64,000 nt of DNA from the NCBI GenBank assembly GCA_016932035.1, contig JAFGDR010000031.1, positions 71,399 to 135,398 on the forward strand. Direction: 5' to 3'. The notes beneath the pieces were generated by a model. That model ran no database searches, was not told the origin of the DNA, and worked only from the letters and a program-made list of their open reading frames with translations. Positions 40,348 to 50,553 of this stretch are shown here, one piece after another (position 1 is the first letter of the stretch; the number at the start of each line of letters is the position of its first letter). This stretch comes from Candidatus Cloacimonadota bacterium (GTDB lineage Bacteria > Cloacimonadota > Cloacimonadia > JGIOTU-2). The position numbers and the translations under genes were made by a program.

Positions 40348-40446
40348 TATTCGTTGTCTATTTATGGAGTAAATCGACTATGCCGATTTAACATTGACGA
40401 AGTCAATTTAGTCCAAATGAACTCAATGTCATCAGTCAGTATTTTC

Positions 40447-41733
40447 CTATTTATTGTTTTCACAATACCCCAGCACTTCACCAATTGTATATAACGAGCC
40501 GCACACGCAGATGAGATCATTTTTATGTGCGATTGCTTTTGCGTGTTCAAACGCGGAAATGCTATCCGGCCTGGCATGATAGTCTTTTCCAGTTCGTTTT
40601 ACTTCTTTTTCCAGTATTTCGACAGGAGCTGCACGGTGAGATTGTGATTTGCTTATCACAAAGACATCGGCTACTTCGGCAAGTGTTTGGATCATCTTAT
40701 GAATATTCTTATCATAGAGAATTCCGATCACCGCAATAAGCCGATCATAGGAATAGATTGTTTTGAGATTATGCACAAGCTGCTTCATGCCTGCAGGATT
40801 GTGTGCACCATCAAGAATTATTGTTGGATTATTCCCTACTTTTTGCAGGCGTCCGTTCCACACAACAGAAGCAAGCGCATGTTTGGTTTTTTCTTCATCA
40901 AGTACAAATCCATAATATTTCGCTAGCACCGCACACACAAGAACTCCAAGCGCAGTATTCCCAACCTGGTGTTTCCCGGCAAGGTTGCAGTGAATTCCTT
41001 TGAAGTTAACATCATAAGCCGTAATTGAGATTTCATAATAAACTCCGTCTTCATCGTATCGCTCGTTGGAAAGGGTAACGACCTTATCGTATTCGACGAC
41101 CGGGCAGGAGAGTTCATTTGCTTTTCTGAGTATTACTTTTCTTGCTGAAGGACGTGTTGTGCCAAGAACAAGTGGAATGCCCTTTTTAAGAATGCCTGCT
41201 TTCTCACCAGCTATTTTTGGCAGGGTCTTACCCAAGGATTTAGTATGATCATATTCGATATTCGTAATGACCGTGATAACAGCATTCAGCAGTACGCTGG
41301 CATCGAGTCGACCGCCGAGACCAACTTCCATGATGGAGAAATCAACTCCTTTATTAAAAAAAAGTTCAAACGCAATCGCAGTTGAAATCTCAAAATAGGT
41401 CGTATCGAATGTATCATGTGCTGCTTTTCTTGTAAAGTAGAGATTGAGAAGTTCTTCGGGTTCGACTTCCTGTTTGTTGATTCTGAACCGTTCTTTGTAA
41501 TCAACAAGATGGGGAGAGGTGTTCAGCCCGACCGAGAAATCGTGGGCGTGCAGGATCGACTCGATTGCAGCGCACGTAGAACCTTTGCCGTTCGTTCCGG
41601 CAACATGAATACACTGTAATTTTTTTTCAGGATTATCGATGGCATCAAGAAATTTCCTGATCCTCGTAAGCTCTATCTTACGATCGGTAGCAGTCTTTGC
41701 GAATATCTCTTCTAAAAATTCTGTATAGTTCAT
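40447..41733 (-). CDS. folC: Folylpolyglutamate synthase / dihydrofolate synthase
   Basis: IHVAGTNGKGST, TSPHL, EVGLGGRLDAS, GRLQ, LDGAHNPAG, CGSLYTIG. Confidence 0.96.
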   Translation of the reverse strand: MNYTEFLEEIFAKTATDRKIELTRIRKFLDAIDNPEKKLQCIHVAGTNGKGSTCAAIESILHAHDFSVGLNTSPHLVDYKERFRINKQEVEPEELLNLYFTRKAAHDTFDTTYFEISTAIAFELFFNKGVDFSIMEVGLGGRLDASVLLNAVITVITNIEYDHTKSLGKTLPKIAGEKAGILKKGIPLVLGTTRPSARKVILRKANELSCPVVEYDKVVTLSNERYDEDGVYYEISITAYDVNFKGIHCNLAGKHQVGNTALGVLVCAVLAKYYGFVLDEEKTKHALASVVWNGRLQKVGNNPTIILDGAHNPAGMKQLVHNLKTIYSYDRLIAVIGILYDKNIHKMIQTLAEVADVFVISKSQSHRAAPVEILEKEVKRTGKDYHARPDSISAFEHAKAIAHKNDLICVCGSLYTIGEVLGYCENNK

Positions 41734-41734
41734 C

Positions 41735-43066
41735 TCATCTCAATAAAATCATTTTATGAAATGCAGTTTCTACTCCATTAGCGATTATTTTGTAAAGATA
41801 AACACCATTGGGAACTTTTTTACCATGATTGTCTTCGCCGTTCCAAGTCACTTGGCAAAAGTATGAATGTGATGAAGAGTTATAAGAAATTTCTAAATCC
41901 GATCCGCCAGCTGACGGACTAATTCCTAATTGCTCTATCATTTGTCCTTTAATATTGTAAATTTCTATTGAAGATAATTCGTGTGAATTAGTGGTTAAAG
42001 AAAACGATAATTTTGTCGAGTTCGAGAAGGGATTCGGATAATTGCATGCAGTTATTTCTTCTTGCGGTGGCACATCTACACCAACACCCGGATAGTAGAA
42101 TCCAGCATCTTGGGGATTAACACCGACAGTGAGTGTATTAAGAAGCTCTTCAGATTCTGAATAGATATACAATCGTCCATTATTGATCCAATCCATTGAG
42201 TCACCGAGATATAATGTGCCGTCTTCATCAATTTTTATAAAACTTCCGCCACTTGCCCAGAGTTCTGATGATGAATGTATGATGGACAGATCAAGAGAAT
42301 TGTATGCCATATACCCAAGCCCGAAGCCATCGGCAAGATAAGCGGTACCATTTGGATGTATAGCGATCTTGGTTGGCGAACCTCCAATATCAAGGACAGT
42401 TATGTCATAATAATTGTTCGTGTTTATTACATAAATTTTACCCCAAACAGCAGGGCTTGTGTAGCCGTAATTACCTGTACATACAACATGTAAACGACCG
42501 AGTGCATCCACTGCTCCAAACTGAGGATTATTACCAACAGGGATCGTGTTCGTTACGATTTCAGAATTGATATCTATAACTGAAACAGTTCCAGTACTTG
42601 AGCCATAAGATGAATTCATGACATATAAATTTTCATTGAAAAGGATCATACCCTCAGGCACTGAGCCAACAGAAATAGTATTTGAAACAATATTATTCAC
42701 AAGATCGAGAACATAAACGCTATTGGTAAAAAGACCTGTTACATAAGCTTTTTGCCCATCTGGATGCAACTCCATCCAGTAAGGATTCGAACCGTTCGGA
42801 CAGTTGATATAGCCGGTTGTGGAAACTGTTTCAAGATCGATTATTTGAATGTGATGAATACCCGAGTTAACGACATATGATCTGTCTTCTTGAACAACGA
42901 TCTGGTTGGCATACTGACCGAGCTGGAGAATGTGATTTTCGAGTACTTCTGTTTCAGTATCGTATCGGGAGAGGGTTTCATCATTGCTGTTTACAATAAA
43001 AACGTCATGTGCACTAAGCCGGGTGAAGAGGAGGCAGAATACAAAGAATAATAGGAAATTTTTCAT
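41735..43066 (-). CDS. YncE/BtuG-like beta-propeller with a C-terminal FlgD-Ig / secretion-sorting-type domain
   Basis: Signal peptide MKNFLLFF (ATG 43066 with an AGAAAGG SD; the ORF-track extension to 43282 overlaps btuB). Propeller blades (VSVID, GNNPQ, GGSP) and C-terminal NYPNPF...YNIKGQ...WNG...GVYLYKI. Confidence 0.82.
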   Translation of the reverse strand: MKNFLLFFVFCLLFTRLSAHDVFIVNSNDETLSRYDTETEVLENHILQLGQYANQIVVQEDRSYVVNSGIHHIQIIDLETVSTTGYINCPNGSNPYWMELHPDGQKAYVTGLFTNSVYVLDLVNNIVSNTISVGSVPEGMILFNENLYVMNSSYGSSTGTVSVIDINSEIVTNTIPVGNNPQFGAVDALGRLHVVCTGNYGYTSPAVWGKIYVINTNNYYDITVLDIGGSPTKIAIHPNGTAYLADGFGLGYMAYNSLDLSIIHSSSELWASGGSFIKIDEDGTLYLGDSMDWINNGRLYIYSESEELLNTLTVGVNPQDAGFYYPGVGVDVPPQEEITACNYPNPFSNSTKLSFSLTTNSHELSSIEIYNIKGQMIEQLGISPSAGGSDLEISYNSSSHSYFCQVTWNGEDNHGKKVPNGVYLYKIIANGVETAFHKMILLR

Positions 43067-43076
43067 AGGAACCTTT

Positions 43077-45242
43077 CTATTTATATATGAGTTTGCAGGA
43101 GCACCCAAAACTTCTGCCGGGCGCAGGGATGTTCCTGGATGATTCATAGGATTCATCGAAGCAATTACGTATGCTGAAATGGGTTTGCAAAGTGAATTTC
43201 TTGGAAAGTGCTGCCTGGCAAGAGATTCCTGCATTGCAGACCGTGTAACCGTCAACGGTAACAGTATTGCTGAAATTGTCATATTGCCTGCCGAGATTGG
43301 TAATTGAAAGAGAGAGTTCGATAGGAAGAAGTGATACTTCTATTTCAGAGTTCAATTTGTGCAGAGGATTATGCGGGATATCCTTATTATAATGGTCACT
43401 GTTCGTGGTTTTATTTATAGGGAAAATTTTTGAGCCACTCATTGAAAGTGAAAGAAATTCAAATGGTTTCCAACCAACCGATCCAGAAAATCCGTACAAA
43501 TCTGCATCGGCAAGATTTTCAGGTTTCCAGACCCCCATCGCGCTTCTGAACCAATATATCAGATCATCGATACGATTGTACGATCCGGTCATCTCAAAAG
43601 TAAATTTCTTTGATTTCCACCTTATGATTGTTTTACCGCCAAACGATCTCTCTGGTTTCAGGTCGGGATTTCCCTGCACGCGAGAATCTCCTTTCCAGAA
43701 AAGAGACGTGAATTCGGGCATTGTGTATGAATTTCCACCAGAAAGTGTCAGCTGGAATTCTTCAGGATTACGAGGTATTTCTATTGTTACATTAGAAGAG
43801 AGGAATGAATTTTCATTTATCAAAGTATCGAATCGTAATGATGGAATGACTGAAATGCTGCTACGCGAAAGAAGTATGGGTATCGAACTTTCATAAGATG
43901 CAAATATATTATTACGGGTTTTTAAAGATATGGTTTGGGAAGGATCAAGATTGTCGTGATAGGAATATGTTTCATGCCTGTATCCGGTTTTTAGTCGGGA
44001 GCTGCACGATCCGAGAAGATGATCCAGCTGCCATGCAGCATCAAAAATTGAAGAACTATTTTCTGAGTTATATGCAAAGAAGACGTTATCGATATCGTTA
44101 AGATATTGACTGTTTGCATGTTGATAGGAGAGCACAAAATCATGTTTAGTTTCATCAGATTCAATCTGGATACTTTCTTTCAAATTGATCCGTGAAGCTT
44201 GAGCTCGTGCATGTTTGTACCACATATAATCGGTCGACTGAGCGGGAATACCTCTCTCCGCCATATACCATTGGAATGCTAAGGTCGAAGATATGTTGTG
44301 TGAAAATAAAATCACATTTTTGGTCGAGAGAGAGCTTTCGGTGATATCATTATTAATGCGCCGAATATCCTTTTGCTCCTGCTCGTTGTAATAAAGAAAA
44401 TTGTTAGACCCTTTATGCGCATAGAAATTAATACTGTTTAAAATTCTTTGGTTAGGGACACTGATATTAAGATTGGTTGAATAATTATCCCAACTGCCTG
44501 CAAAGATCGTGGTATCGTAAGAAAATTCTTTATTAGGATTCTTTGTCACAAAATTGATCGCTCCCCCCATTGCAGCATTTCCGGATACCGACGATGCATT
44601 ACCCGAAAGCACTTCTATGTGATCGATCTGTTCGAGAGGAATAGTCCCAAGCGTATTCATCGTTGGATTATTTACCGTTACTCCATCGACCAAAAGAGCA
44701 ACATGCCGCGATTTATACCCCATGATTCGTATCGATTTTTCGCCCATTGCATTTTCTTCAAGAATAATATCAGGATGTTGAGCAATCAATTCCTCGGTTT
44801 CCAAAACAGTGGTGCCTTTTGGAAGGATAACTGAGATATTGGATTGTGAAAGCGTCAGCACATTGTCTTTTTTACTCTTGACTGTCATACCTGGAATGAT
44901 TATCGGTTCAGGTTCTAGTCCAATAATTGCATAACGAATTTTCGGTTCAAATATGTAATGTTTATTTCTATATCCAATACTTGATAGTGATAATTCCAAT
45001 GATTCTTTATATGGATGTGGATCGATATTAAAACATCCCTCCTCATCGGTAAGAATTATCTCACCGGTTTTAATTATTTCAATGCACACATAGGGTATCG
45101 AGCTGTAGTCTTTTAAAGATATAATTCTCCCACCTATCTTGGAGCTTACCCTGCAGAAAACAATCGAAGGTATAATGAGAAAGAGAATTAGGCAGAGAAA
45201 TTTACACTTTATCAGTCTCATGAGCATAATTGTAGAGTACAT
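43077..45242 (-). CDS. btuB: TonB-dependent receptor, putative cobalamin transporter
   Basis: N-terminal carboxypeptidase-like domain, plug (SIRIMG...LLVDGV...IDHIEVLSG...GGAINFVT), NPDLKPERS, IRNCFDESY...PGRSF; sits in the cobalamin-riboswitch gene set. Confidence 0.8.
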   Translation of the reverse strand: MYSTIMLMRLIKCKFLCLILFLIIPSIVFCRVSSKIGGRIISLKDYSSIPYVCIEIIKTGEIILTDEEGCFNIDPHPYKESLELSLSSIGYRNKHYIFEPKIRYAIIGLEPEPIIIPGMTVKSKKDNVLTLSQSNISVILPKGTTVLETEELIAQHPDIILEENAMGEKSIRIMGYKSRHVALLVDGVTVNNPTMNTLGTIPLEQIDHIEVLSGNASSVSGNAAMGGAINFVTKNPNKEFSYDTTIFAGSWDNYSTNLNISVPNQRILNSINFYAHKGSNNFLYYNEQEQKDIRRINNDITESSLSTKNVILFSHNISSTLAFQWYMAERGIPAQSTDYMWYKHARAQASRINLKESIQIESDETKHDFVLSYQHANSQYLNDIDNVFFAYNSENSSSIFDAAWQLDHLLGSCSSRLKTGYRHETYSYHDNLDPSQTISLKTRNNIFASYESSIPILLSRSSISVIPSLRFDTLINENSFLSSNVTIEIPRNPEEFQLTLSGGNSYTMPEFTSLFWKGDSRVQGNPDLKPERSFGGKTIIRWKSKKFTFEMTGSYNRIDDLIYWFRSAMGVWKPENLADADLYGFSGSVGWKPFEFLSLSMSGSKIFPINKTTNSDHYNKDIPHNPLHKLNSEIEVSLLPIELSLSITNLGRQYDNFSNTVTVDGYTVCNAGISCQAALSKKFTLQTHFSIRNCFDESYESSRNIPAPGRSFGCSCKLIYK

Positions 45243-45993
45243 TTGGCTTGCCAGTAAAAGGATTTATCGTCACCTCGATTGGCACATGAAAAACAGTCTT
45301 AAGAATATCTTTCCTCAATATGTCTTCTGTTTTTCCGTATGCGATTATCCTTCCTTTATCGAGGATAAGGATCTTGTTACAGAATTCGGCAGCAAGGTTG
45401 ATATTATGGGAGACTGCGAGGATCGTCTTTTTCTGAATTACATTTTGTTTTTTAAGAAGCGAGTATATGCCGATTTGGTGATGGATGTCGAGATGGGATG
45501 CCGGTTCGTCAAAAAGAAGAATGTCTGTATTCTGGTTGAGAGCTCTCGCTATCATAATAAGCTGGAATTCTCCTCCGCTTAATTCGCTGAGATATCTATC
45601 TGCGAGATGTTCAATGCCAAGTTCCTGTAGGATAGCTTCAGTTTGCGCAATATGTTCCTGTGTATAATTCTGCCAGAAACCAAGATAGGGATACTTTCCC
45701 ATCAGAACAACATCCATGACCGTAAAATCAAATTCGAAATGAGGTTGCTGAACCACAACTGAGATCTGCTTTGCTCGTTCAAGATGAGAATATGCATGAA
45801 GTTGTTTGTTTTTAATAATAATTTTTCCCTTGTATGTATCTAAAAACCCGCACATGCATTTCAGGAGTGTTGATTTTCCTGCGCCATTCGGACCGATCAC
45901 ACCAATAAAATCATGAGCATCGACATCGAAGGAAATGCCCGTGAGAACTGGATTTTCCGTATATGCAAAAAATAAATCAGAAATAAGTATCAT
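45202..45993 (-). CDS. btuD: Cobalamin/iron-chelate ABC transporter ATP-binding subunit
   Basis: GPNGAGKST, LSGGEFQ, LLFDEPASHLD, SHNINLA. Confidence 0.85.
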   Translation of the reverse strand: MILISDLFFAYTENPVLTGISFDVDAHDFIGVIGPNGAGKSTLLKCMCGFLDTYKGKIIIKNKQLHAYSHLERAKQISVVVQQPHFEFDFTVMDVVLMGKYPYLGFWQNYTQEHIAQTEAILQELGIEHLADRYLSELSGGEFQLIMIARALNQNTDILLFDEPASHLDIHHQIGIYSLLKKQNVIQKKTILAVSHNINLAAEFCNKILILDKGRIIAYGKTEDILRKDILKTVFHVPIEVTINPFTGKPNVLYNYAHETDKV

Positions 45994-46000
45994 TTTTTTA

Positions 46001-46029
46001 TTGACGTTAATATACTTGTTTTGTATGTT
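46001..46029 (+). promoter_or_regulatory. Sigma70-type promoter of rrf2-iscS-iscU with an overlapping inverted repeat (putative Rrf2 operator)
   Basis: TTGACG-N17-TATGTT. The inverted repeat AATATAC-N7-GTATGTT (46009-46029) overlaps the spacer and the -10 box. Confidence 0.55.
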
Positions 46030-46057
46030 TTAATAAAATATGATCATGGAGGTCATA

Positions 46058-46465
46058 ATGAAAATATCGATAGACACCGATTACAGTTTGCGAGCTCTTC
46101 AGGAACTTGCATACCAGGATAAAGAATATCCTTACTCTATTGTTAAAATCGCAACAGCGAGAAAAATTCCTCATAAGTATCTTGAGAAATTGTTCAGAAG
46201 ATTGAGGATGGCAGGCATTGTTACATCTGTTAAAGGGCGCAAGGGAGGATACAGACTCAGCCGAGATCCTTCGAAGATAACGACAAAAGATATTATCAAG
46301 GCAGTTGATGGAAGAACAAATATTCACAGTTGCAACGACCGAAAGAGCGAAAAACTCTGTGAGTTTGTTGATGAATGCTCGTTCCAGGATTTTTGGAATA
46401 ATTTTAATACTCATATTAATGACTTTCTTGATTCTTATACTTTAGCTGATTTTCTTGAAAAATAG
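46058..46465 (+). CDS. Rrf2 family transcriptional regulator (IscR-like)
   Basis: YSLRALQELA, IPHKYLEK, GRKGGYRL, and three Cys (C..C..C) of the Fe-S site. Start set at ATG 46058 after GGAGG. Confidence 0.9.
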   Translation: MKISIDTDYSLRALQELAYQDKEYPYSIVKIATARKIPHKYLEKLFRRLRMAGIVTSVKGRKGGYRLSRDPSKITTKDIIKAVDGRTNIHSCNDRKSEKLCEFVDECSFQDFWNNFNTHINDFLDSYTLADFLEK

Positions 46466-46473
46466 CGGAGTGT

Positions 46474-47658
46474 GTGATGAGCGAAAAGGAAGTATATCTC
46501 GATAGCTGCAAAACGTCCAAACTTGCACCGGAAGTACTCGAAGCTATGATGCCTTATATGACGGATAAATACTGGTATCCGGGTTCTTTTACAAGTATTG
46601 GAACAGAGATAGCTGAAGTAATTGAAGATGCACAGGCACGGGTTGCAGATTCGATGAATGCTGAACCGGAAGAGATAACCTTCACATCTGGTGGTACTGA
46701 TGCTAATAATATTGCGATCCAGGGTATCATGCAGGCAAATAAAGATCGGGGAAAGCATTTCATCTGTTCGACTGTTTCACATCCATCAGTGCTGGCTGTA
46801 TTTCAGGGCTTGGAAAAACAGGGCTTTGAAGGAACCTATATTTCTGCAAATAAGGACGGCTATCTGAACCTTGAAGAATTGAAAGCAGCGATCAGACCTG
46901 ATACCGTGCTTGCTGCATTTACGCACATCAATCATATTCTTGGTACAATACAGGATGCAAAAGCAATTCGGGATATACTTGACCAGGCAGATCAAAAGAT
47001 CTACCTTTTCATGGATTCATGCGAAGCTTATACAAAAATCCCTCTCGATGTGAATGAGCTTGGAATCGATGCACTTTCTATTTCAGTTCATAAATTCAAT
47101 GGACCCAAATGCATGGGAATTCTCTATGTCAAAAAAGGAACGAAGATCATTCCGACGCAGTTTGGCATTGTACGGTTGTACAAGCTCAAACCAGGTGCGA
47201 TCAATATTCCGGGTATTGTAGGAGCTGCAAAAGCAGTCGAGTTAGCATTCACTGATTTTGATATACAGATAGCACATTACAGGGAACTCCAGAAGTTGCT
47301 CTATGATGAGATAATGAGAAGAATTCCTGACGTGGTTTTGAATGGACCTCCGCTGGGAGAACGAAGTCCGGCACATCTGAATATAACCTTCAGATACATT
47401 GAAGGTGAAGCCATCATGATGATGCTCGATTTTGATAATATCCATGTCGAGACAGGTTCAGCATGCTCTTCACAAAATCTGCAACCAAATTATATTCTGA
47501 TGAATACGGGTAGAACTCATGAGGAATCACATGGGTCAGTACGTTTTACGCTGGATCGGTTTGTGACAAAGGAAGGTATTCTTAAAACCGTGGATGCGCT
47601 TGAGAAAACAGCAAAAGAACTTCGTAGAAGAAGTCCCCTTGGTAAGAAGGAGCAATAA
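46474..47658 (+). CDS. iscS: Cysteine desulfurase (IscS/NifS family, divergent)
   Basis: FTSGGTDANN, PLP lysine SVHKFNGPK, catalytic TGSACSS, GSVRF. Confidence 0.88.
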   Translation: MMSEKEVYLDSCKTSKLAPEVLEAMMPYMTDKYWYPGSFTSIGTEIAEVIEDAQARVADSMNAEPEEITFTSGGTDANNIAIQGIMQANKDRGKHFICSTVSHPSVLAVFQGLEKQGFEGTYISANKDGYLNLEELKAAIRPDTVLAAFTHINHILGTIQDAKAIRDILDQADQKIYLFMDSCEAYTKIPLDVNELGIDALSISVHKFNGPKCMGILYVKKGTKIIPTQFGIVRLYKLKPGAINIPGIVGAAKAVELAFTDFDIQIAHYRELQKLLYDEIMRRIPDVVLNGPPLGERSPAHLNITFRYIEGEAIMMMLDFDNIHVETGSACSSQNLQPNYILMNTGRTHEESHGSVRFTLDRFVTKEGILKTVDALEKTAKELRRRSPLGKKEQ

Positions 47659-48293
47659 TGGCTATCAAATATTCGGAATTGGTGATCGAGCATTTTAAGA
47701 ATCCTCATAATGTGGGAACATTAGAAAAACCTGATGCGTCTGCCACAGAGGGGAGTCCCGCTTGCGGTGATCAGTTAACCGTTTATCTGAAGGTAAATCC
47801 AGAAACGCAGGTCATTGAAGATATTAAATTTCAATCCTATGGATGTGCTTCTAATATTGCAACAGCATCGATTATAACAGACCTTGCTCTGGGTAAAACA
47901 CTGAAGGAAGCAAAAGAGATCTCCTGGAAACAGGCGGCTGAAGAACTCGGTGGTCTCCCGCCCGTTAAGATGCACTGCTCAGTCCTTGCTGTCGATGCAC
48001 TTCGTTCTGCGATAAAGGATTGGGAACACAAACATCTTGGCAAAGAGCTCGATGATAATCTTACAAAGAAGAATCTCGTAAAAGAATTACAGAAAGTGAT
48101 CTATGGCAAAGTCGGAGTAGACATCGTAAGCTTAAGGCTGCTCAAGTATGTAGGCATCGATGACAATAAGAATGTACTGATTGAGCTGGCAATCCAGAAG
48201 GATGATCCCTTTATCGATGACCTGAAACATGAGATCAACGAACGTATGGAGAAATTTCCGGATATTGCATCAGTGAAGATTTCGCTCGTATAG
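47658..48293 (+). CDS. iscU: IscU/NifU-N scaffold with an extra C-terminal domain (DUF59/MIP18-like)
   Basis: EHFKNPHN, SPACGD, SYGC, PPVKMHC, followed by about 80 extra aa containing VDIVSLRLL. Confidence 0.88.
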   Translation: MAIKYSELVIEHFKNPHNVGTLEKPDASATEGSPACGDQLTVYLKVNPETQVIEDIKFQSYGCASNIATASIITDLALGKTLKEAKEISWKQAAEELGGLPPVKMHCSVLAVDALRSAIKDWEHKHLGKELDDNLTKKNLVKELQKVIYGKVGVDIVSLRLLKYVGIDDNKNVLIELAIQKDDPFIDDLKHEINERMEKFPDIASVKISLV

Positions 48294-48339
48294 CGAAACC
48301 GGATGCTCATCAACACACTATATAGCTAAAAAGAACGAT

Positions 48340-49287
48340 TTATTTTTTCTTTAACAAATATACAAAAAACGGTGCACCAAAAAGTGCGGTAATAACCCCA
48401 ACAGGGATTTCGATTACAAGCACAGAACGTGCTATAGTATCACACAGAACAAGGAATGTTGCACCAAGCAGAGCGGAAAGCGGAAGCGTGTAACGATTAT
48501 CCGACCCGATCAAAAGACGCGCTATATGCGGAATGATCAAACCAACAAAGCCGATAATCCCGACGAAAGATACGATTATACCAACGAGGAATGAAGTGAG
48601 AATAAAAAGATACTTTCGCGTTTTATAGACATTTACACCGAGCGTTTCTGCTGAATAATCTCCCATTGAAAGGACATTTAGTCTTACAGAAAAGAAGCAG
48701 AGAACAGCCACTCCGACGATTGAACATCCAACAATAATCCAGAGCAGAAAAGCATTGGAATGTGAGAAAATAAATCCAAGATTTCCCATAAGAATTGAGA
48801 AAATCTGCGCCAGGTCTTTATGAAAAACACTCATCAAAAATGCAATGATCGCAGAAAAGAACATGTTGACGATCACACCAGAGAGGATAAGTCGGGTTTT
48901 GTCTACGTGCCTTTGTTTTTGTGCTATCTTCCAGACAAGTATCATTGTTACAAGTGCACCAAGAAAACCGAAAATGGGCATAAGGTAAACTTTTTTTAAG
49001 AGAAGCCCGATGATGCTGCCAAGTGCTGCACCGGAAGAAATACCAAGAAGATAAGGTTCTGCAAGAGGATTGTGAAGCATGCCCTGAAGCACACCACCGG
49101 TCGATGCAAGAATGAGTCCTGCTGCAATACCGAGAAGAATTCGCGGAAGACGTATATTGAAAAGAATATTTCTGCCGATTTCTGATAGAGAAAAAAGATT
49201 TACTGAACTTCCCCCGATCTGTAACGATATAAAGACGACAATGAGGAGTGCTATAAAAGCAAAAACAAGGTAAAGTTTTTTATTCAT
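48340..49287 (-). CDS. btuC: Cobalamin/iron-chelate ABC transporter permease (FecCD family)
   Basis: IRLPRI, NPLAEPYLLGISSGA, GIIGFVGLIIPHIAR, GAPFF. Start set at ATG 49287. Confidence 0.88.
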   Translation of the reverse strand: MNKKLYLVFAFIALLIVVFISLQIGGSSVNLFSLSEIGRNILFNIRLPRILLGIAAGLILASTGGVLQGMLHNPLAEPYLLGISSGAALGSIIGLLLKKVYLMPIFGFLGALVTMILVWKIAQKQRHVDKTRLILSGVIVNMFFSAIIAFLMSVFHKDLAQIFSILMGNLGFIFSHSNAFLLWIIVGCSIVGVAVLCFFSVRLNVLSMGDYSAETLGVNVYKTRKYLFILTSFLVGIIVSFVGIIGFVGLIIPHIARLLIGSDNRYTLPLSALLGATFLVLCDTIARSVLVIEIPVGVITALFGAPFFVYLLKKK

Positions 49288-50107
49288 TTTGCTTAGACAA
49301 TTCTGAAAGTTTTTGAATGCCCTGTACAACTCTCGGACCAGCTCGAAGGAGCAGATCAGGATCGATATCTTCTGTTGTGTATATGTTGTTTGTCTTTACT
49401 GCTGAGATGGTTTGCCATCCAAGCCTGCTTGTGATATCCTTCTTTGTTGCATTCGGATAGGTGATGATAATAATATCAGGATCGAGTTTCACGATATTTT
49501 CTGATGAGACAGCACAGTATTCTCGCGGCAATTCAGGGAAGATATTTTCAAGACCAGTTGCTCGAAGAAGGTCTCCAACAAAGGAACCTGAAGACGCAGT
49601 CATAAGAGGTTTGTTGTATATTTCAATATAAACGGATGGCTTATTGGTTAGTTTTGGAATTTTCTCGATTTTCTGCTGCATGTATTGAACAAGTGAATCA
49701 GCTTCTTGGTCATGATGAAGAAGTTCACCTACCGAGACTATTGTTTCGTATAATGATGTTAATGATGAAGGAAAGAAGCGAAAAACCTCCATTCCGAGTT
49801 TCTCAAGTTGATGGGATAGTATCTCCTGTTCCATACCTGTACAAAGTACTGCATCCGGTTCTAGTGCAGCGATCTTTTCGATGCTTGGTGAGCTGAAGCT
49901 GCCAACAGAATTTATTTCATGTAACTCATCCGGGTAGTCACACTCCAGCACGATACCGATTATGTGTTCCTCAGCACCGAGCACACAGATTATCTCTGCC
50001 AGTTCGGGAGATAGCACAACAATCCGGGGATGTGGTGCATTTACAGGTTGGCGGCCAGTACAACTCAGCATGAAGATTAGAAAAACCAGGATAATACTTT
50101 TTTTCAT
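49280..50107 (-). CDS. btuF: Cobalamin-binding lipoprotein (periplasmic binding protein)
   Basis: Lipobox MLSC, RIVVLSPELAEI, PSIEKIAALEPD, RAGPR; first gene under the riboswitch. Confidence 0.88.
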   Translation of the reverse strand: MKKSIILVFLIFMLSCTGRQPVNAPHPRIVVLSPELAEIICVLGAEEHIIGIVLECDYPDELHEINSVGSFSSPSIEKIAALEPDAVLCTGMEQEILSHQLEKLGMEVFRFFPSSLTSLYETIVSVGELLHHDQEADSLVQYMQQKIEKIPKLTNKPSVYIEIYNKPLMTASSGSFVGDLLRATGLENIFPELPREYCAVSSENIVKLDPDIIIITYPNATKKDITSRLGWQTISAVKTNNIYTTEDIDPDLLLRAGPRVVQGIQKLSELSKQNE

Positions 50108-50108
50108 G

Positions 50109-50139
50109 AAAAAAACCCAATCTCGGTGGAAATTGGGTT
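50109..50139 (-). terminator. Riboswitch expression-platform terminator directly abutting the btuF ATG
   Basis: Minus strand AACCCAAT-N10-ATTGGGTT then a U run, one C, and the ATG. Confidence 0.7.
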
Positions 50140-50190
50140 CTCATTGTATGAGAATTATTTCTTCCACCGAAAAATAATCGTCTAATACAT

Positions 50191-50362
50191 AAGGCAGGTT
50201 TCCTGGCTTACAGCGAAACGAGGATGCCTTCCCATTCCCAATTGATCGGGATCAGTGACGTCTCCTCTTGAAGATGCTGATTACAGTGGCGGGGACCGCT
50301 TCCGATTTTCACGGAATTCCCTCTTGGTATTATGCCAATAGCACGCACACAAGCACCTTATA
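50191..50362 (-). ncRNA. Cobalamin (AdoCbl) riboswitch
   Basis: Minus strand contains AAGGTGC...AAGAGGGAATTCCGTGAAAATCGGAAGCGGTCCCCGCCACTGT...GTCACTG...GGGAAGG...AAGCCAGGAAACCTGCC (B12 box), upstream of btuF. Confidence 0.95.
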
Positions 50363-50553
50363 TATTACACACTATTATAGTTGGATTGGAAAGATATGAA
50401 GAATGGTTGTCAAATATCTTGGGATATTAGTTTGGTTGTGAAAAGAAATCTTTCAGGAGTATGATATTGTTTATGTTACTATTTAAATAACAGAAAACAC
50501 AGAAATTTTGGAAGTTATTGTGAAGCAAATTTGTCGTGAATTACCTTGTAATT

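Follow-up and report, generated by a model that had tools for sequence, protein, structure and literature searches.

When the genes of a vitamin B12 importer are split by an Fe-S assembly operon on the opposite strand, are the two parts still transcribed together? The question is raised by an uncultured Cloacimonadota bacterium, in which a riboswitch, btuF and btuC on the minus strand are followed by rrf2, iscS and iscU on the plus strand and then, again on the minus strand, by btuD, a TonB receptor, a BtuG-like propeller and folC. A sequence-only reading had proposed a noncontiguous operon, or excludon, in which the riboswitch-controlled transcript may read through the isc genes. Gene calls and profile matches place every gene where that reading had put it. 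Within the window, i.e., the whole 64,000-nucleotide stretch analyzed, the features are:

50408–50413, minus strand: -35 box TTGACA of the promoter for riboswitch and btuFC, found upstream of the leader motif in 16 relatives
50368–50375, minus strand: leader motif ATAGTGTG, abutting riboswitch helix P1 on its 5' side; transcription probably starts in this region
50176–50375, minus strand: cobalamin riboswitch aptamer RF00174 (99.2 bits against an Rfam gathering cut-off of 31.5, E 1.4e-23, full model 1–189)
50109–50139, minus strand: expression platform with an intrinsic terminator (8-bp stem AACCCAAU/AUUGGGUU, 10-nt loop, U7) ending at the btuF ATG
49280–50107, minus strand: btuF-like periplasmic corrinoid-binding protein (Peripla_BP_2 1.5e-34; BtuF model 1e-22, below the equivalog cut-off)
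48340–49329, minus strand: btuC-like permease of the FecCD family (FecCD 5.4e-82; BtuC models 7.5e-71)
48305–48336, minus strand: conserved non-coding element just past the btuC stop, GTTCTTT-N8-ATAGTGTGTTGATGAGC, with core ATAGTGTG at 48314–48321
47658–48293, plus strand: iscU/NifU-type scaffold fused to a C-terminal SUF-associated (DUF59-like) domain
46474–47658, plus strand: iscS/nifS cysteine desulfurase (Aminotran_5 7.4e-63; NifS 5e-103)
46058–46465, plus strand (longer ORF from 46040): Rrf2-family regulator, IscR-like, with ATG 46058 behind GGAGG at 46048–46052
46001–46029, plus strand: rrf2 promoter TTGACG-17-TATGTT, with a palindromic operator ATAC-N7-GTAT in the spacer at about 46010–46028
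45202–45993, minus strand: btuD-like ABC ATPase (ABC_tran), without a Shine-Dalgarno (SD) sequence or a TTGACA on its own strand
43077–45242, minus strand: TonB-dependent receptor, BtuB-like (plug and barrel; TonB-B12 model 7.7e-27, below cut-off), start codon uncertain
41735–43282, minus strand: BtuG-like beta-propeller with a T9SS C-terminal sorting domain, start codon uncertain
40447–41733, minus strand: folC (TIGR01499, 9.7e-108)

All parts of a BtuFCD-type (type II) importer are thus found by Pfam, namely a cluster A binding protein, a FecCD permease and an ABC ATPase. None of the NCBIfam models for BtuF, BtuC and BtuD reaches its curated cut-off, and similar scores are given by heme and iron-siderophore models; the importer is assigned to B12 because of the riboswitch and the BtuG homolog. 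The propeller resembles solved BtuG structures over residues of about 100–390 (8OKV, 8P97, 8BMX, 8BMY, 3DSM; E 7e-9 to 4e-7), with matches to BtuG2/BtuG3 (8OKV, 8BMX, 3DSM) at E of about 7e-9, and its homologs lie directly behind a cobalamin riboswitch in families f5 and f6. Whereas BtuG is a lipoprotein in Bacteroides, the Cloacimonadota propeller, a putative B12 binder, bears the T9SS domain in place of a lipoprotein anchor.

The upstream part is the most readily interpreted. Judging from its sequence, the riboswitch works by transcription termination, and the terminator hairpin and U-run recur in relatives. Among 16 relatives, the TTGACA precedes the leader motif by a fixed 29 nt in the same genus and by 32–37 nt in other genera, in agreement with a genome-wide A-rich start position 30 nt past TTGACA; the motif is hence a probable start region. 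Both btuF and btuC are single-copy genes in this genome.

More than 20 independent assemblies of Cloacimonadota share this eight-gene block. They come from four families (f1, f3, f7, f8), placed to either side of the midpoint root, and the genes that flank the block differ even within the genus. This distribution indicates that the block is ancestral and conserved. That the isc cassette was misjoined between btuC and btuD by assembly or binning, a caveat of the sequence-only reading to which a draft of 66 contigs might lend some weight, is refuted: order and orientation are kept within single contigs of these assemblies, which include a single-cell genome and MAGs of different studies. The contiguous btuFCD suggested for comparison was found in one relative, G021, as a derived state, where btuC and btuD became tightly joined once the cassette was lost. 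Other relatives show the modules to be separable. In family f6 and in G024 (f5), btuFC, btuD-btuB and the propeller lie at different loci; in G032, G036 and G024, btuD stays beside isc without btuFC; and the single riboswitch of f5/f6 precedes the propeller, not btuFC. The divergent pair btuD/rrf2 is the most persistent adjacency among the relatives, and the iscU/btuC adjacency is conserved, with the element in its gap, while flanks turn over.

The intervening operon carries the only U-type scaffold gene of the genome, in which SufBD was not found; strong antisense repression would therefore hit the only evident Fe-S assembly route of the cell. Alignments to NCBIfam models begin at residue 7 of the longer rrf2 ORF, and translation probably starts at ATG 46058, so that the spacer between btuD and rrf2 would measure 64 bp. 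The rrf2 -35 box indeed lies close to the btuD ATG, at a distance of 7 nt instead of the 8 given previously. An alignment of this promoter from 24 relatives shows conservation of TTGACA, the palindrome (TACTAAATTAGTA in other genera) and GTATGTTTTA. The layout is that of IscR-type control: the operon opens with the gene of an Rrf2 regulator, and a palindromic operator lies in the promoter of that gene. Scores for the IscR equivalog are below cut-off, and the protein is named only “Rrf2 family, IscR-like.” RNA antisense to isc would be untranslated and has more C than G over most of 2.35 kb, and Rho is encoded in the genome. A 12-nt inverted repeat around the cassette (I11; 45967–45978 and 48337–48348) was considered as an inversion scar; it is not conserved in same-genus relatives and is attributed to chance.

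How, then, is btuD transcribed? No family-conserved TTGAC[AGT] was found on its strand anywhere between btuC and btuD in 15 family-f1 genomes. Within the window, the sole minus-strand TTGACW from the riboswitch promoter to the end of folC is a non-conserved one at 47127–47132, the next lying just past folC at 40401–40406. The former, antisense to iscS at about -1140 of btuD, recurs in 4/8 same-genus genomes, probably due to coding conservation of iscS. A TTGACA promoter precedes btuD in no split genome but in all five f6 genomes with the modules apart, at -40 to -67. The alternative proposed earlier, a promoter inside rrf2, fared no better, since third-position entropy (i.e., synonymous-site constraint) shows no clear dip beyond the usual 5'-end effect and a family-conserved TTGACA is missing. 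TTGACA is strongly purged from non-promoter DNA in this genome (37 occurrences in the window vs 95 ± 10 expected), and exact TTGACA is missing at about half of the leading genes. The absence of an obvious SD at btuD was correctly noted but is unremarkable: SD-like cores mark about 45% of crudely called starts in the genome against a background of 11%, and SD-less starts, btuF included, are common. Further downstream, folC starts 1 nt after the propeller stop codon and is single-copy in the genome; the operon that begins with btuD therefore needs B12-independent expression.

The 46-bp gap between the convergent iscU and btuC ends (48294–48339), whose length had been given correctly, contains no canonical hairpin with a U-tract on either strand, as also noted before. 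It does hold a weak A/U hairpin, and a 9-bp hairpin without U-run spans the iscU stop. This lack is the common state in the genome, where a terminator is found at 28% of convergent gene ends and absent at 72%. Across relatives, however, a btuC-sense terminator occurs at 1/14 uninserted junctions vs the 28% baseline. In four same-genus genomes the gap has taken up MITE-like inserts of 170–420 bp with terminator-like hairpins in btuC sense, and btuD is intact.

The core of the element past btuC repeats the leader motif of the riboswitch. This motif, ATAGnGTG, is present exactly twice on the btu-sense strand in 11/11 genomes, at the leader start and 19–65 nt past the btuC stop, and its GTGT and GTGA variants are clade-specific and the same at both sites. 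The element is found in all split genomes of family f1, is weaker in f7/f8 and is absent where btuFC lies elsewhere. Pattern searches revealed no second full copy in the genome; loose resemblances to GTTCTTT...TAGnGTG numbered only three, on contigs C1, C58 and C60, and their surroundings are unrelated, which argues against a dispersed repeat or a general promoter; nor is ATAGnGTG a general start signal there. Several further identities were rejected. Rfam gave no match, even with E values of up to 5 allowed; predicted hairpins vary by genus without conserved pairing; the small ORF after an ATG runs for 5–70 codons and is conserved in neither sequence nor length; and the conserved box at -30 to -35 expected of a TTGACA-type promoter is missing. 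Pairing of an isc 3' UTR with the riboswitch leader was discarded as well, because the two copies in one and the same genome differ at the variable fifth position of the motif. This difference fits better with recognition of the motif than with base-pairing.

Several known systems resemble parts of this arrangement. Noncontiguous operons are recognized by at least one long transcript that spans the co-oriented genes on either side and whose coverage is sustained through the antisense gene(s) (PMC11034616). Mutual repression of this transcript and the antisense gene(s) is a further hallmark. As in the cases from Staphylococcus aureus (e.g., menE-menC/MW1733; PMC11034616), functionally linked co-directional genes, here btuF-btuC and btuD onward, are split by opposite-strand genes (rrf2-iscS-iscU), the first break has no evident terminator, and gene order is kept more strongly than the surroundings. 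Co-transcription in S. aureus was, however, shown by direct RNA sequencing and RT-PCR, whereas for the Cloacimonadota locus it would be a prediction from sequence. Furthermore, 17 of the 18 chromosomal examples in S. aureus contain a single opposite-strand gene and the only three-gene case failed RT-PCR (PMC11034616), while here three genes (2.35 kb), including the only U-type scaffold, follow a riboswitch-controlled upstream part. The excludons of Listeria monocytogenes (PMC7154746) likewise consist of adjoining opposite-strand units with very short or missing intergenic signals, from which overlapping transcripts and mutual interference are expected; they are defined from mapped long antisense UTRs, whereas overlap in the present case would be predicted from terminator absence in a 46-bp gap. 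B12 loci of Bacteroides thetaiotaomicron (riboswitch-btuB-btuG-...-btuFCD; PMC10404256, PMC6143338) share the riboswitch, TonB receptor, BtuG-type propeller and BtuFCD-type importer, but each is contiguous and wholly behind its own riboswitch, whereas here the ATPase gene sits with that of the receptor, cut off from btuFC by the isc operon. Finally, a short motif in the leader of a long unit recalls processive antitermination by RfaH, for which operon leaders carry the ops sequence GGCGGTAGCGTG (PMC5995543). Within ATAGnGTG, TAGnGTG looks like the 3' part of ops; the GGCG half of ops is absent. A NusG paralog is encoded in the genome, but it occurs alike in f1, f2, f3, f6, f7 and f8, split and apart, and therefore does not track the split layout, and ATAGnGTG was not found within 1.5 kb on either side of its gene. 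The likeness is a lead only.

Taken together, we tentatively favor three transcription units with overlapping ends, set in an old and conserved gene block, with a probability approaching an even chance, over a true noncontiguous operon, which we consider rather unlikely. In the latter, polymerase at low B12 would pass btuF, btuC and 2.35 kb antisense to isc before reaching btuD, the TonB receptor and the BtuG-like gene; one riboswitch would control the whole importer, its transcription would oppose that of the Fe-S operon, and the repeated motif may render polymerase Rho-resistant. This would account for the persistence of the block on both sides of the root amid differing flanks, the lack of a btuD TTGACA in all split genomes as against its presence in the five with the modules apart, the lack of a conserved minus-strand TTGACW as far as the end of folC, the scarcity of btuC-sense terminators and the motif pair with its clade-matched variants. 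It would also agree with the tight junction left in G021 and with the riboswitch control of BtuB/BtuG loci in Bacteroides (PMC10404256) and sister families, which leads one to expect such control here. Such a transcript would, however, have to escape Rho on C-rich, untranslated RNA, run head-on into an operon that carries the sole iscU of a genome lacking SufBD, and cross the Rrf2 operator and the rrf2 promoter right before btuD. B12 would silence the sole folC, three antisense genes exceed any confirmed example (PMC11034616), the gap tolerates inserts with terminator-like hairpins, and the modules work apart in f5/f6. A fuller version, in which the twice-repeated motif loads an antitermination factor such as the NusG paralog so that polymerase survives Rho from btuF to the BtuG-like gene and translation of the SD-less btuD is helped, is improbable as a whole. 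There is also a slim chance that the element past btuC forms a second 5' end, by initiation or processing, of a B12-independent RNA that runs antisense through isc as a long btuD-folC 5' UTR, an excludon-type overlap without riboswitch control. The element does repeat the sequence at the probable +1 of the riboswitch transcript, TAGnGT agrees with TAnnnT, the skeleton of a -10-like element, and both folC expression and the promoter absence near btuD would be explained. Yet a TTGACA-like box at the right distance upstream is missing in every clade, the motif is no general start signal in the genome, and Rho and collisions pose the same problems.

Three overlapping units would fit the separability of the modules in f6 and G024, the riboswitch position in f5/f6 and the persistence of btuD/rrf2, as expected for overlapping promoters. 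They would leave folC independent of B12 and spare the sole evident Fe-S assembly route, and they agree with the presence of Rho and the composition of the antisense RNA. Convergent ends without terminator are the majority state, inserts with btuC-sense hairpins are tolerated with btuD intact, about half of the leading genes do without an exact TTGACA, and the S. aureus operons nearly all enclose a single opposite-strand gene. Against this stand the failure to identify a btuD promoter in 15 f1 genomes despite its presence in all five f6 genomes and the purging of TTGACA elsewhere, the lack of a clear embedded element in rrf2, the shortage of btuC-sense terminators, and the conserved iscU/btuC adjacency and gap element amid changing flanks, which are left unexplained.

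Under the three-unit reading, unit 1 would run from its TTGACA promoter through the riboswitch to btuF and btuC, and B12 would shut it off via the intrinsic terminator. Its transcripts probably enter antisense iscU and would be ended there by Rho or head-on collision. Unit 2, rrf2-iscS-iscU, would be transcribed from the TTGACG-17-TATGTT promoter and, judging from its architecture, autoregulated via the operator in the promoter spacer. Unit 3, comprising btuD, the receptor, the propeller and folC, would be B12-independent, with a non-canonical start in the 64-bp region shared with rrf2; its output may depend on Rrf2 and on occupancy of the isc promoter, and read-through out of unit 1 would contribute little to it. 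The block would be held together by the control region in which the divergent units overlap and by the conserved element in the convergent gap.

If co-transcription is true, the locus would be the first riboswitch-governed noncontiguous operon, with the largest antisense insert known, and B12 uptake would be directly coupled to Fe-S cluster biogenesis across a whole phylum of anaerobes. Even otherwise, the ATPase of an ABC importer is separated from its permease in a conserved manner in at least four families, and the locus-specific pair of conserved motifs is a useful feature in its own right. The natural “revertant” G021 and the dispersed f6 relatives serve for comparison. Promoters in Cloacimonadota can, moreover, be read from TTGACA alone, so that operon prediction in these uncultured genomes becomes more tractable.

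The window belongs to a 2.44-Mb draft genome in 66 contigs from an uncultured Cloacimonadota bacterium, and Ca. Celaenobacter antarcticus and Cloacimonetes SCGC AAA252-N17 are among the records of its genus. Sample types with this genus are marine or hypersaline sediment, Guaymas-type and Antarctic lake. The gene list of the sequence-only reading was confirmed: a riboswitch-btuF-btuC unit (minus strand), an rrf2-iscS-iscU cassette (plus strand) and a btuD-receptor-propeller-folC unit (minus strand). The convergent gap between iscU and btuC measures 46 bp and the divergent spacer between btuD and rrf2 64 bp.

Features of the cluster (window coordinates)
50176-50375, minus: cobalamin riboswitch (RF00174, 99 bits)
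49280-50107, minus: btuF
48340-49329, minus: btuC
48305-48336, minus: post-btuC element, ~32 nt, non-coding, just past the btuC stop
47658-48293, plus: iscU
46474-47658, plus: iscS
46058-46465, plus: rrf2
45202-45993, minus: btuD
43077-45242, minus: TonB-dependent receptor
41735-43282, minus: beta-propeller with T9SS tail
40447-41733, minus: folC

Across 40 relatives, btuD, btuC, iscU and the riboswitch were located, and the surrounding DNA was surveyed together with tblastn searches using all cluster proteins. The order propeller<btuB<btuD | rrf2>iscS>iscU> <btuC<btuF<riboswitch occurs within one contig in all informative genomes of f1, the family of the window, with six genera represented, and the full split order, with the isc cassette between btuC and btuD, is also found in f3 (G022), f7 (G030) and f8 (G035). 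Recurrence within single contigs across these families rules out the assembly artefact that had been considered. The 8-gene block is preserved while its flanking genes vary even inside a genus. The modules are dispersed in f5 and f6, the latter including a complete 2.2-Mb genome: btuFC occupies its own locus, btuD and btuB are still paired, and the single riboswitch lies directly ahead of a propeller homolog. Three genomes (G032, G036, G024) retain btuD divergent from the isc genes, with btuFC absent there. A search for contiguous btuFCD, suggested earlier, returned one case, the f2 genome G021, where riboswitch, btuF, btuC and btuD are contiguous (4 nt from btuC stop to btuD ATG) and an isc operon of a different type lies elsewhere. 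In the BtuC+BtuD tree, G021 falls inside the split clade, f3 being the outgroup (99% SH-aLRT), and the split layout stands on either side of the midpoint root. The split is therefore ancestral, and both the contiguous and the dispersed arrangements are derived.

The promoter signal of this genome is unusually easy to read. On the sense strand, an exact TTGAC[AT] precedes 38% of the leading genes in co-directional arrangement and 49% of those in divergent arrangement (antisense strand, 3.8%), with a position peak 40-70 nt ahead of the start codon. TTGACW is scarce outside promoters: the window holds 37 sites where shuffles give 95 +/- 10 (~2.5-fold depletion). A profile of 244 such sites revealed an A-rich start ~30 nt downstream and no -10 consensus; promoters in this genome appear to rely on TTGACA and an upstream A/T tract. 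The riboswitch unit and rrf2 each possess a TTGAC-type box, and the spacer of the rrf2 promoter contains a conserved palindrome, likely the Rrf2 operator. Where btuD has free upstream space, as in f6, an exact TTGACA precedes its ATG by 40-67 nt in five of five genomes, but 15 f1 genomes show no family-conserved TTGACA box on the btuD strand across the 2.4 kb back to btuC; the earlier remark that no promoter is visible for btuD thus stands. No such box lies within 260 nt upstream of btuD in f3 and f7, and f8 has a five-of-six match, TTGGCA, overlapping the rrf2 box. Absence of a btuD promoter box correlates with the split layout. On the window's minus strand, the stretch from the riboswitch promoter to the folC end has a single TTGACW (47127-47132), antisense to iscS; 4 of the 8 same-genus genomes have it at the same position, and the other genera lack it. 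Third-position entropy over rrf2, iscS and iscU gave no clear embedded element. The Shine-Dalgarno sequence reported as lacking at btuD is indeed missing, which is uninformative in this genome.

The rrf2 leader, AAAATATGATCATGGAGGTCATAATG (46036-46060), is near-invariant across the genus and can form a 6-bp hairpin (AUGAUC/GGUCAU) covering the Shine-Dalgarno sequence, so that translational control of rrf2 is possible. The relative G017 carries a GC-rich insert of 366 bp in its btuD-rrf2 spacer (locus L036, 5099-5545), which brings a second copy of the rrf2 -35 box and of half the operator.

At the riboswitch end, an intrinsic terminator (8-bp stem plus U7) abuts the btuF ATG, which marks the riboswitch as a predicted transcriptional OFF switch and indicates that the organism uses hairpin-plus-U terminators. 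In this genome such a site follows 28% of gene ends that are convergent, against 13% of those that are co-directional and 3% of controls from coding sequence. The window's iscU/btuC junction has none on either strand, in agreement with the original observation. A btuC-sense candidate is present at 5 of 19 split junctions, four within same-genus inserts and one in G016; among junctions free of inserts the count is 1 of 14, a mild depletion across related genomes that are not independent. Terminator absence by itself is weak evidence. The inserts that four same-genus genomes carry in this gap are MITE-like, measure 170-420 bp, share the ends CTAACTCGGATAA ... GAATTAAGTAACTAATG and are placed between iscU and the conserved element.

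MITE-like gap inserts (locus coordinates)
L021, 7733-7955
L023, 2379-2558
L025, 12999-13436
L027, 12338-12812

The element reads GTTCTTT-N8-ATAGTGTGTTGATGAGC on the window's minus strand, with its core ATAGTGTG at 48314-48321, and GTTCTTT-N9/10-ATAGAGTGAAAGATGAAAA in other genera. It is conserved throughout f1 and more weakly in f7 and f8, and was not found after btuC in genomes with btuFC located elsewhere. Rfam gave no match to it, neither a fold nor an ORF is conserved in it, and the genome holds no second full copy, only three loose look-alikes in unrelated contexts. In sequence the core copies the opening 8-12 nt of the riboswitch leader, which lie just 5' of helix P1, where transcription is predicted to begin: ATAGnGTGT at both copies in the window's genus, ATAGAGTGA at both in other genera, where the similarity reaches ~21 nt. 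From the riboswitch to the cluster end, the btu-sense strand carries two copies of ATAGnGTG and no more in 11 of 11 genomes, one in the leader and one in the element. As an 8-mer it is not rare inside a single genome (125 copies), and the signal is its conservation. The fifth position varies independently between the two copies, so a recognised motif fits better than RNA pairing. ATAGnGTG is similar to the 3' portion of ops in E. coli (GGCGGTAGCGTG; PMC5995543), and the genome encodes a NusG paralog; a link between the two is no more than a lead.

This paralog, a second NGN-domain protein of UpxY/RfaH type (181 aa; contig C12, 460-1005, minus), is conserved as one copy in f1, f2, f3, f6, f7 and f8 but missing from f4 and f5; families with the split layout and families with dispersed modules both have it. 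The contig end truncates its downstream target operon, and the DNA flanking the gene contains no ATAGnGTG-type motif.

We tentatively favour three overlapping transcription units, in which btuD-folC would be started non-canonically within a control region shared with rrf2. A functional noncontiguous operon, with the riboswitch-btuFC transcript reading through the antisense isc genes into the btuD operon, seems less likely. In favour of such an operon, the gene block is conserved and ancestral; against it, the modules function at separate loci in other families. Terminators are few at the junction, which speaks for read-through, but the gap tolerates inserts with terminator-like hairpins, which speaks against it. 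Also in favour, loss of the btuD promoter accompanies the split layout, and the conserved element sits at the start of the untranslated antisense stretch. That stretch would, however, yield 2.35 kb of untranslated antisense RNA with C>G, a classic Rho substrate, in a genome that encodes Rho. The transcript would also run head-on into isc transcription, the Rrf2 operator and the rrf2 promoter, and the opposed cassette carries the sole iscU of a genome without SufBD.

BtuB and BtuG are under riboswitch control in Bacteroides and sister families, which favours read-through; however, the genome has one folC, whose start lies 1 nt past the stop of the BtuG-like propeller gene, which means that the btuD operon has to be active in the presence of ample B12. 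Confirmed noncontiguous operons nearly always enclose a single gene and, according to the authors who described them, can be predicted only with a transcriptome (PMC11034616). A second 5' end at the post-btuC element is improbable, and other explanations share the remaining probability.

The propeller (41735-43282) matches the solved BtuG2 and BtuG3 structures (E ~7e-9) and is a BtuG homolog, with a T9SS sorting tail in place of a lipobox. In f5 and f6 its homolog is the first gene after the genome's cobalamin riboswitch (L068, 7680-9073; L071, L077, L064, L088, L086); G039 has two riboswitches, ahead of a btuB-like gene and of the propeller, respectively. Adjacency of folC and the BtuG-like gene is kept in several f1 genera and may reflect a B12-folate link via methionine synthase. 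IscU, the genome's sole U-type scaffold, is a protein of 211 aa in which a NifU_N scaffold is fused to a C-terminal SUF-associated (DUF59-like) domain, a form kept in most sampled Cloacimonadota families, with a short form in G021 and f4. Elsewhere in the genome (contig C1, 13740-13960), a second copy of the 5' half of tRNA-Thr(CGU) lies ~170 nt ahead of the complete gene and may be the scar of an integrated element.
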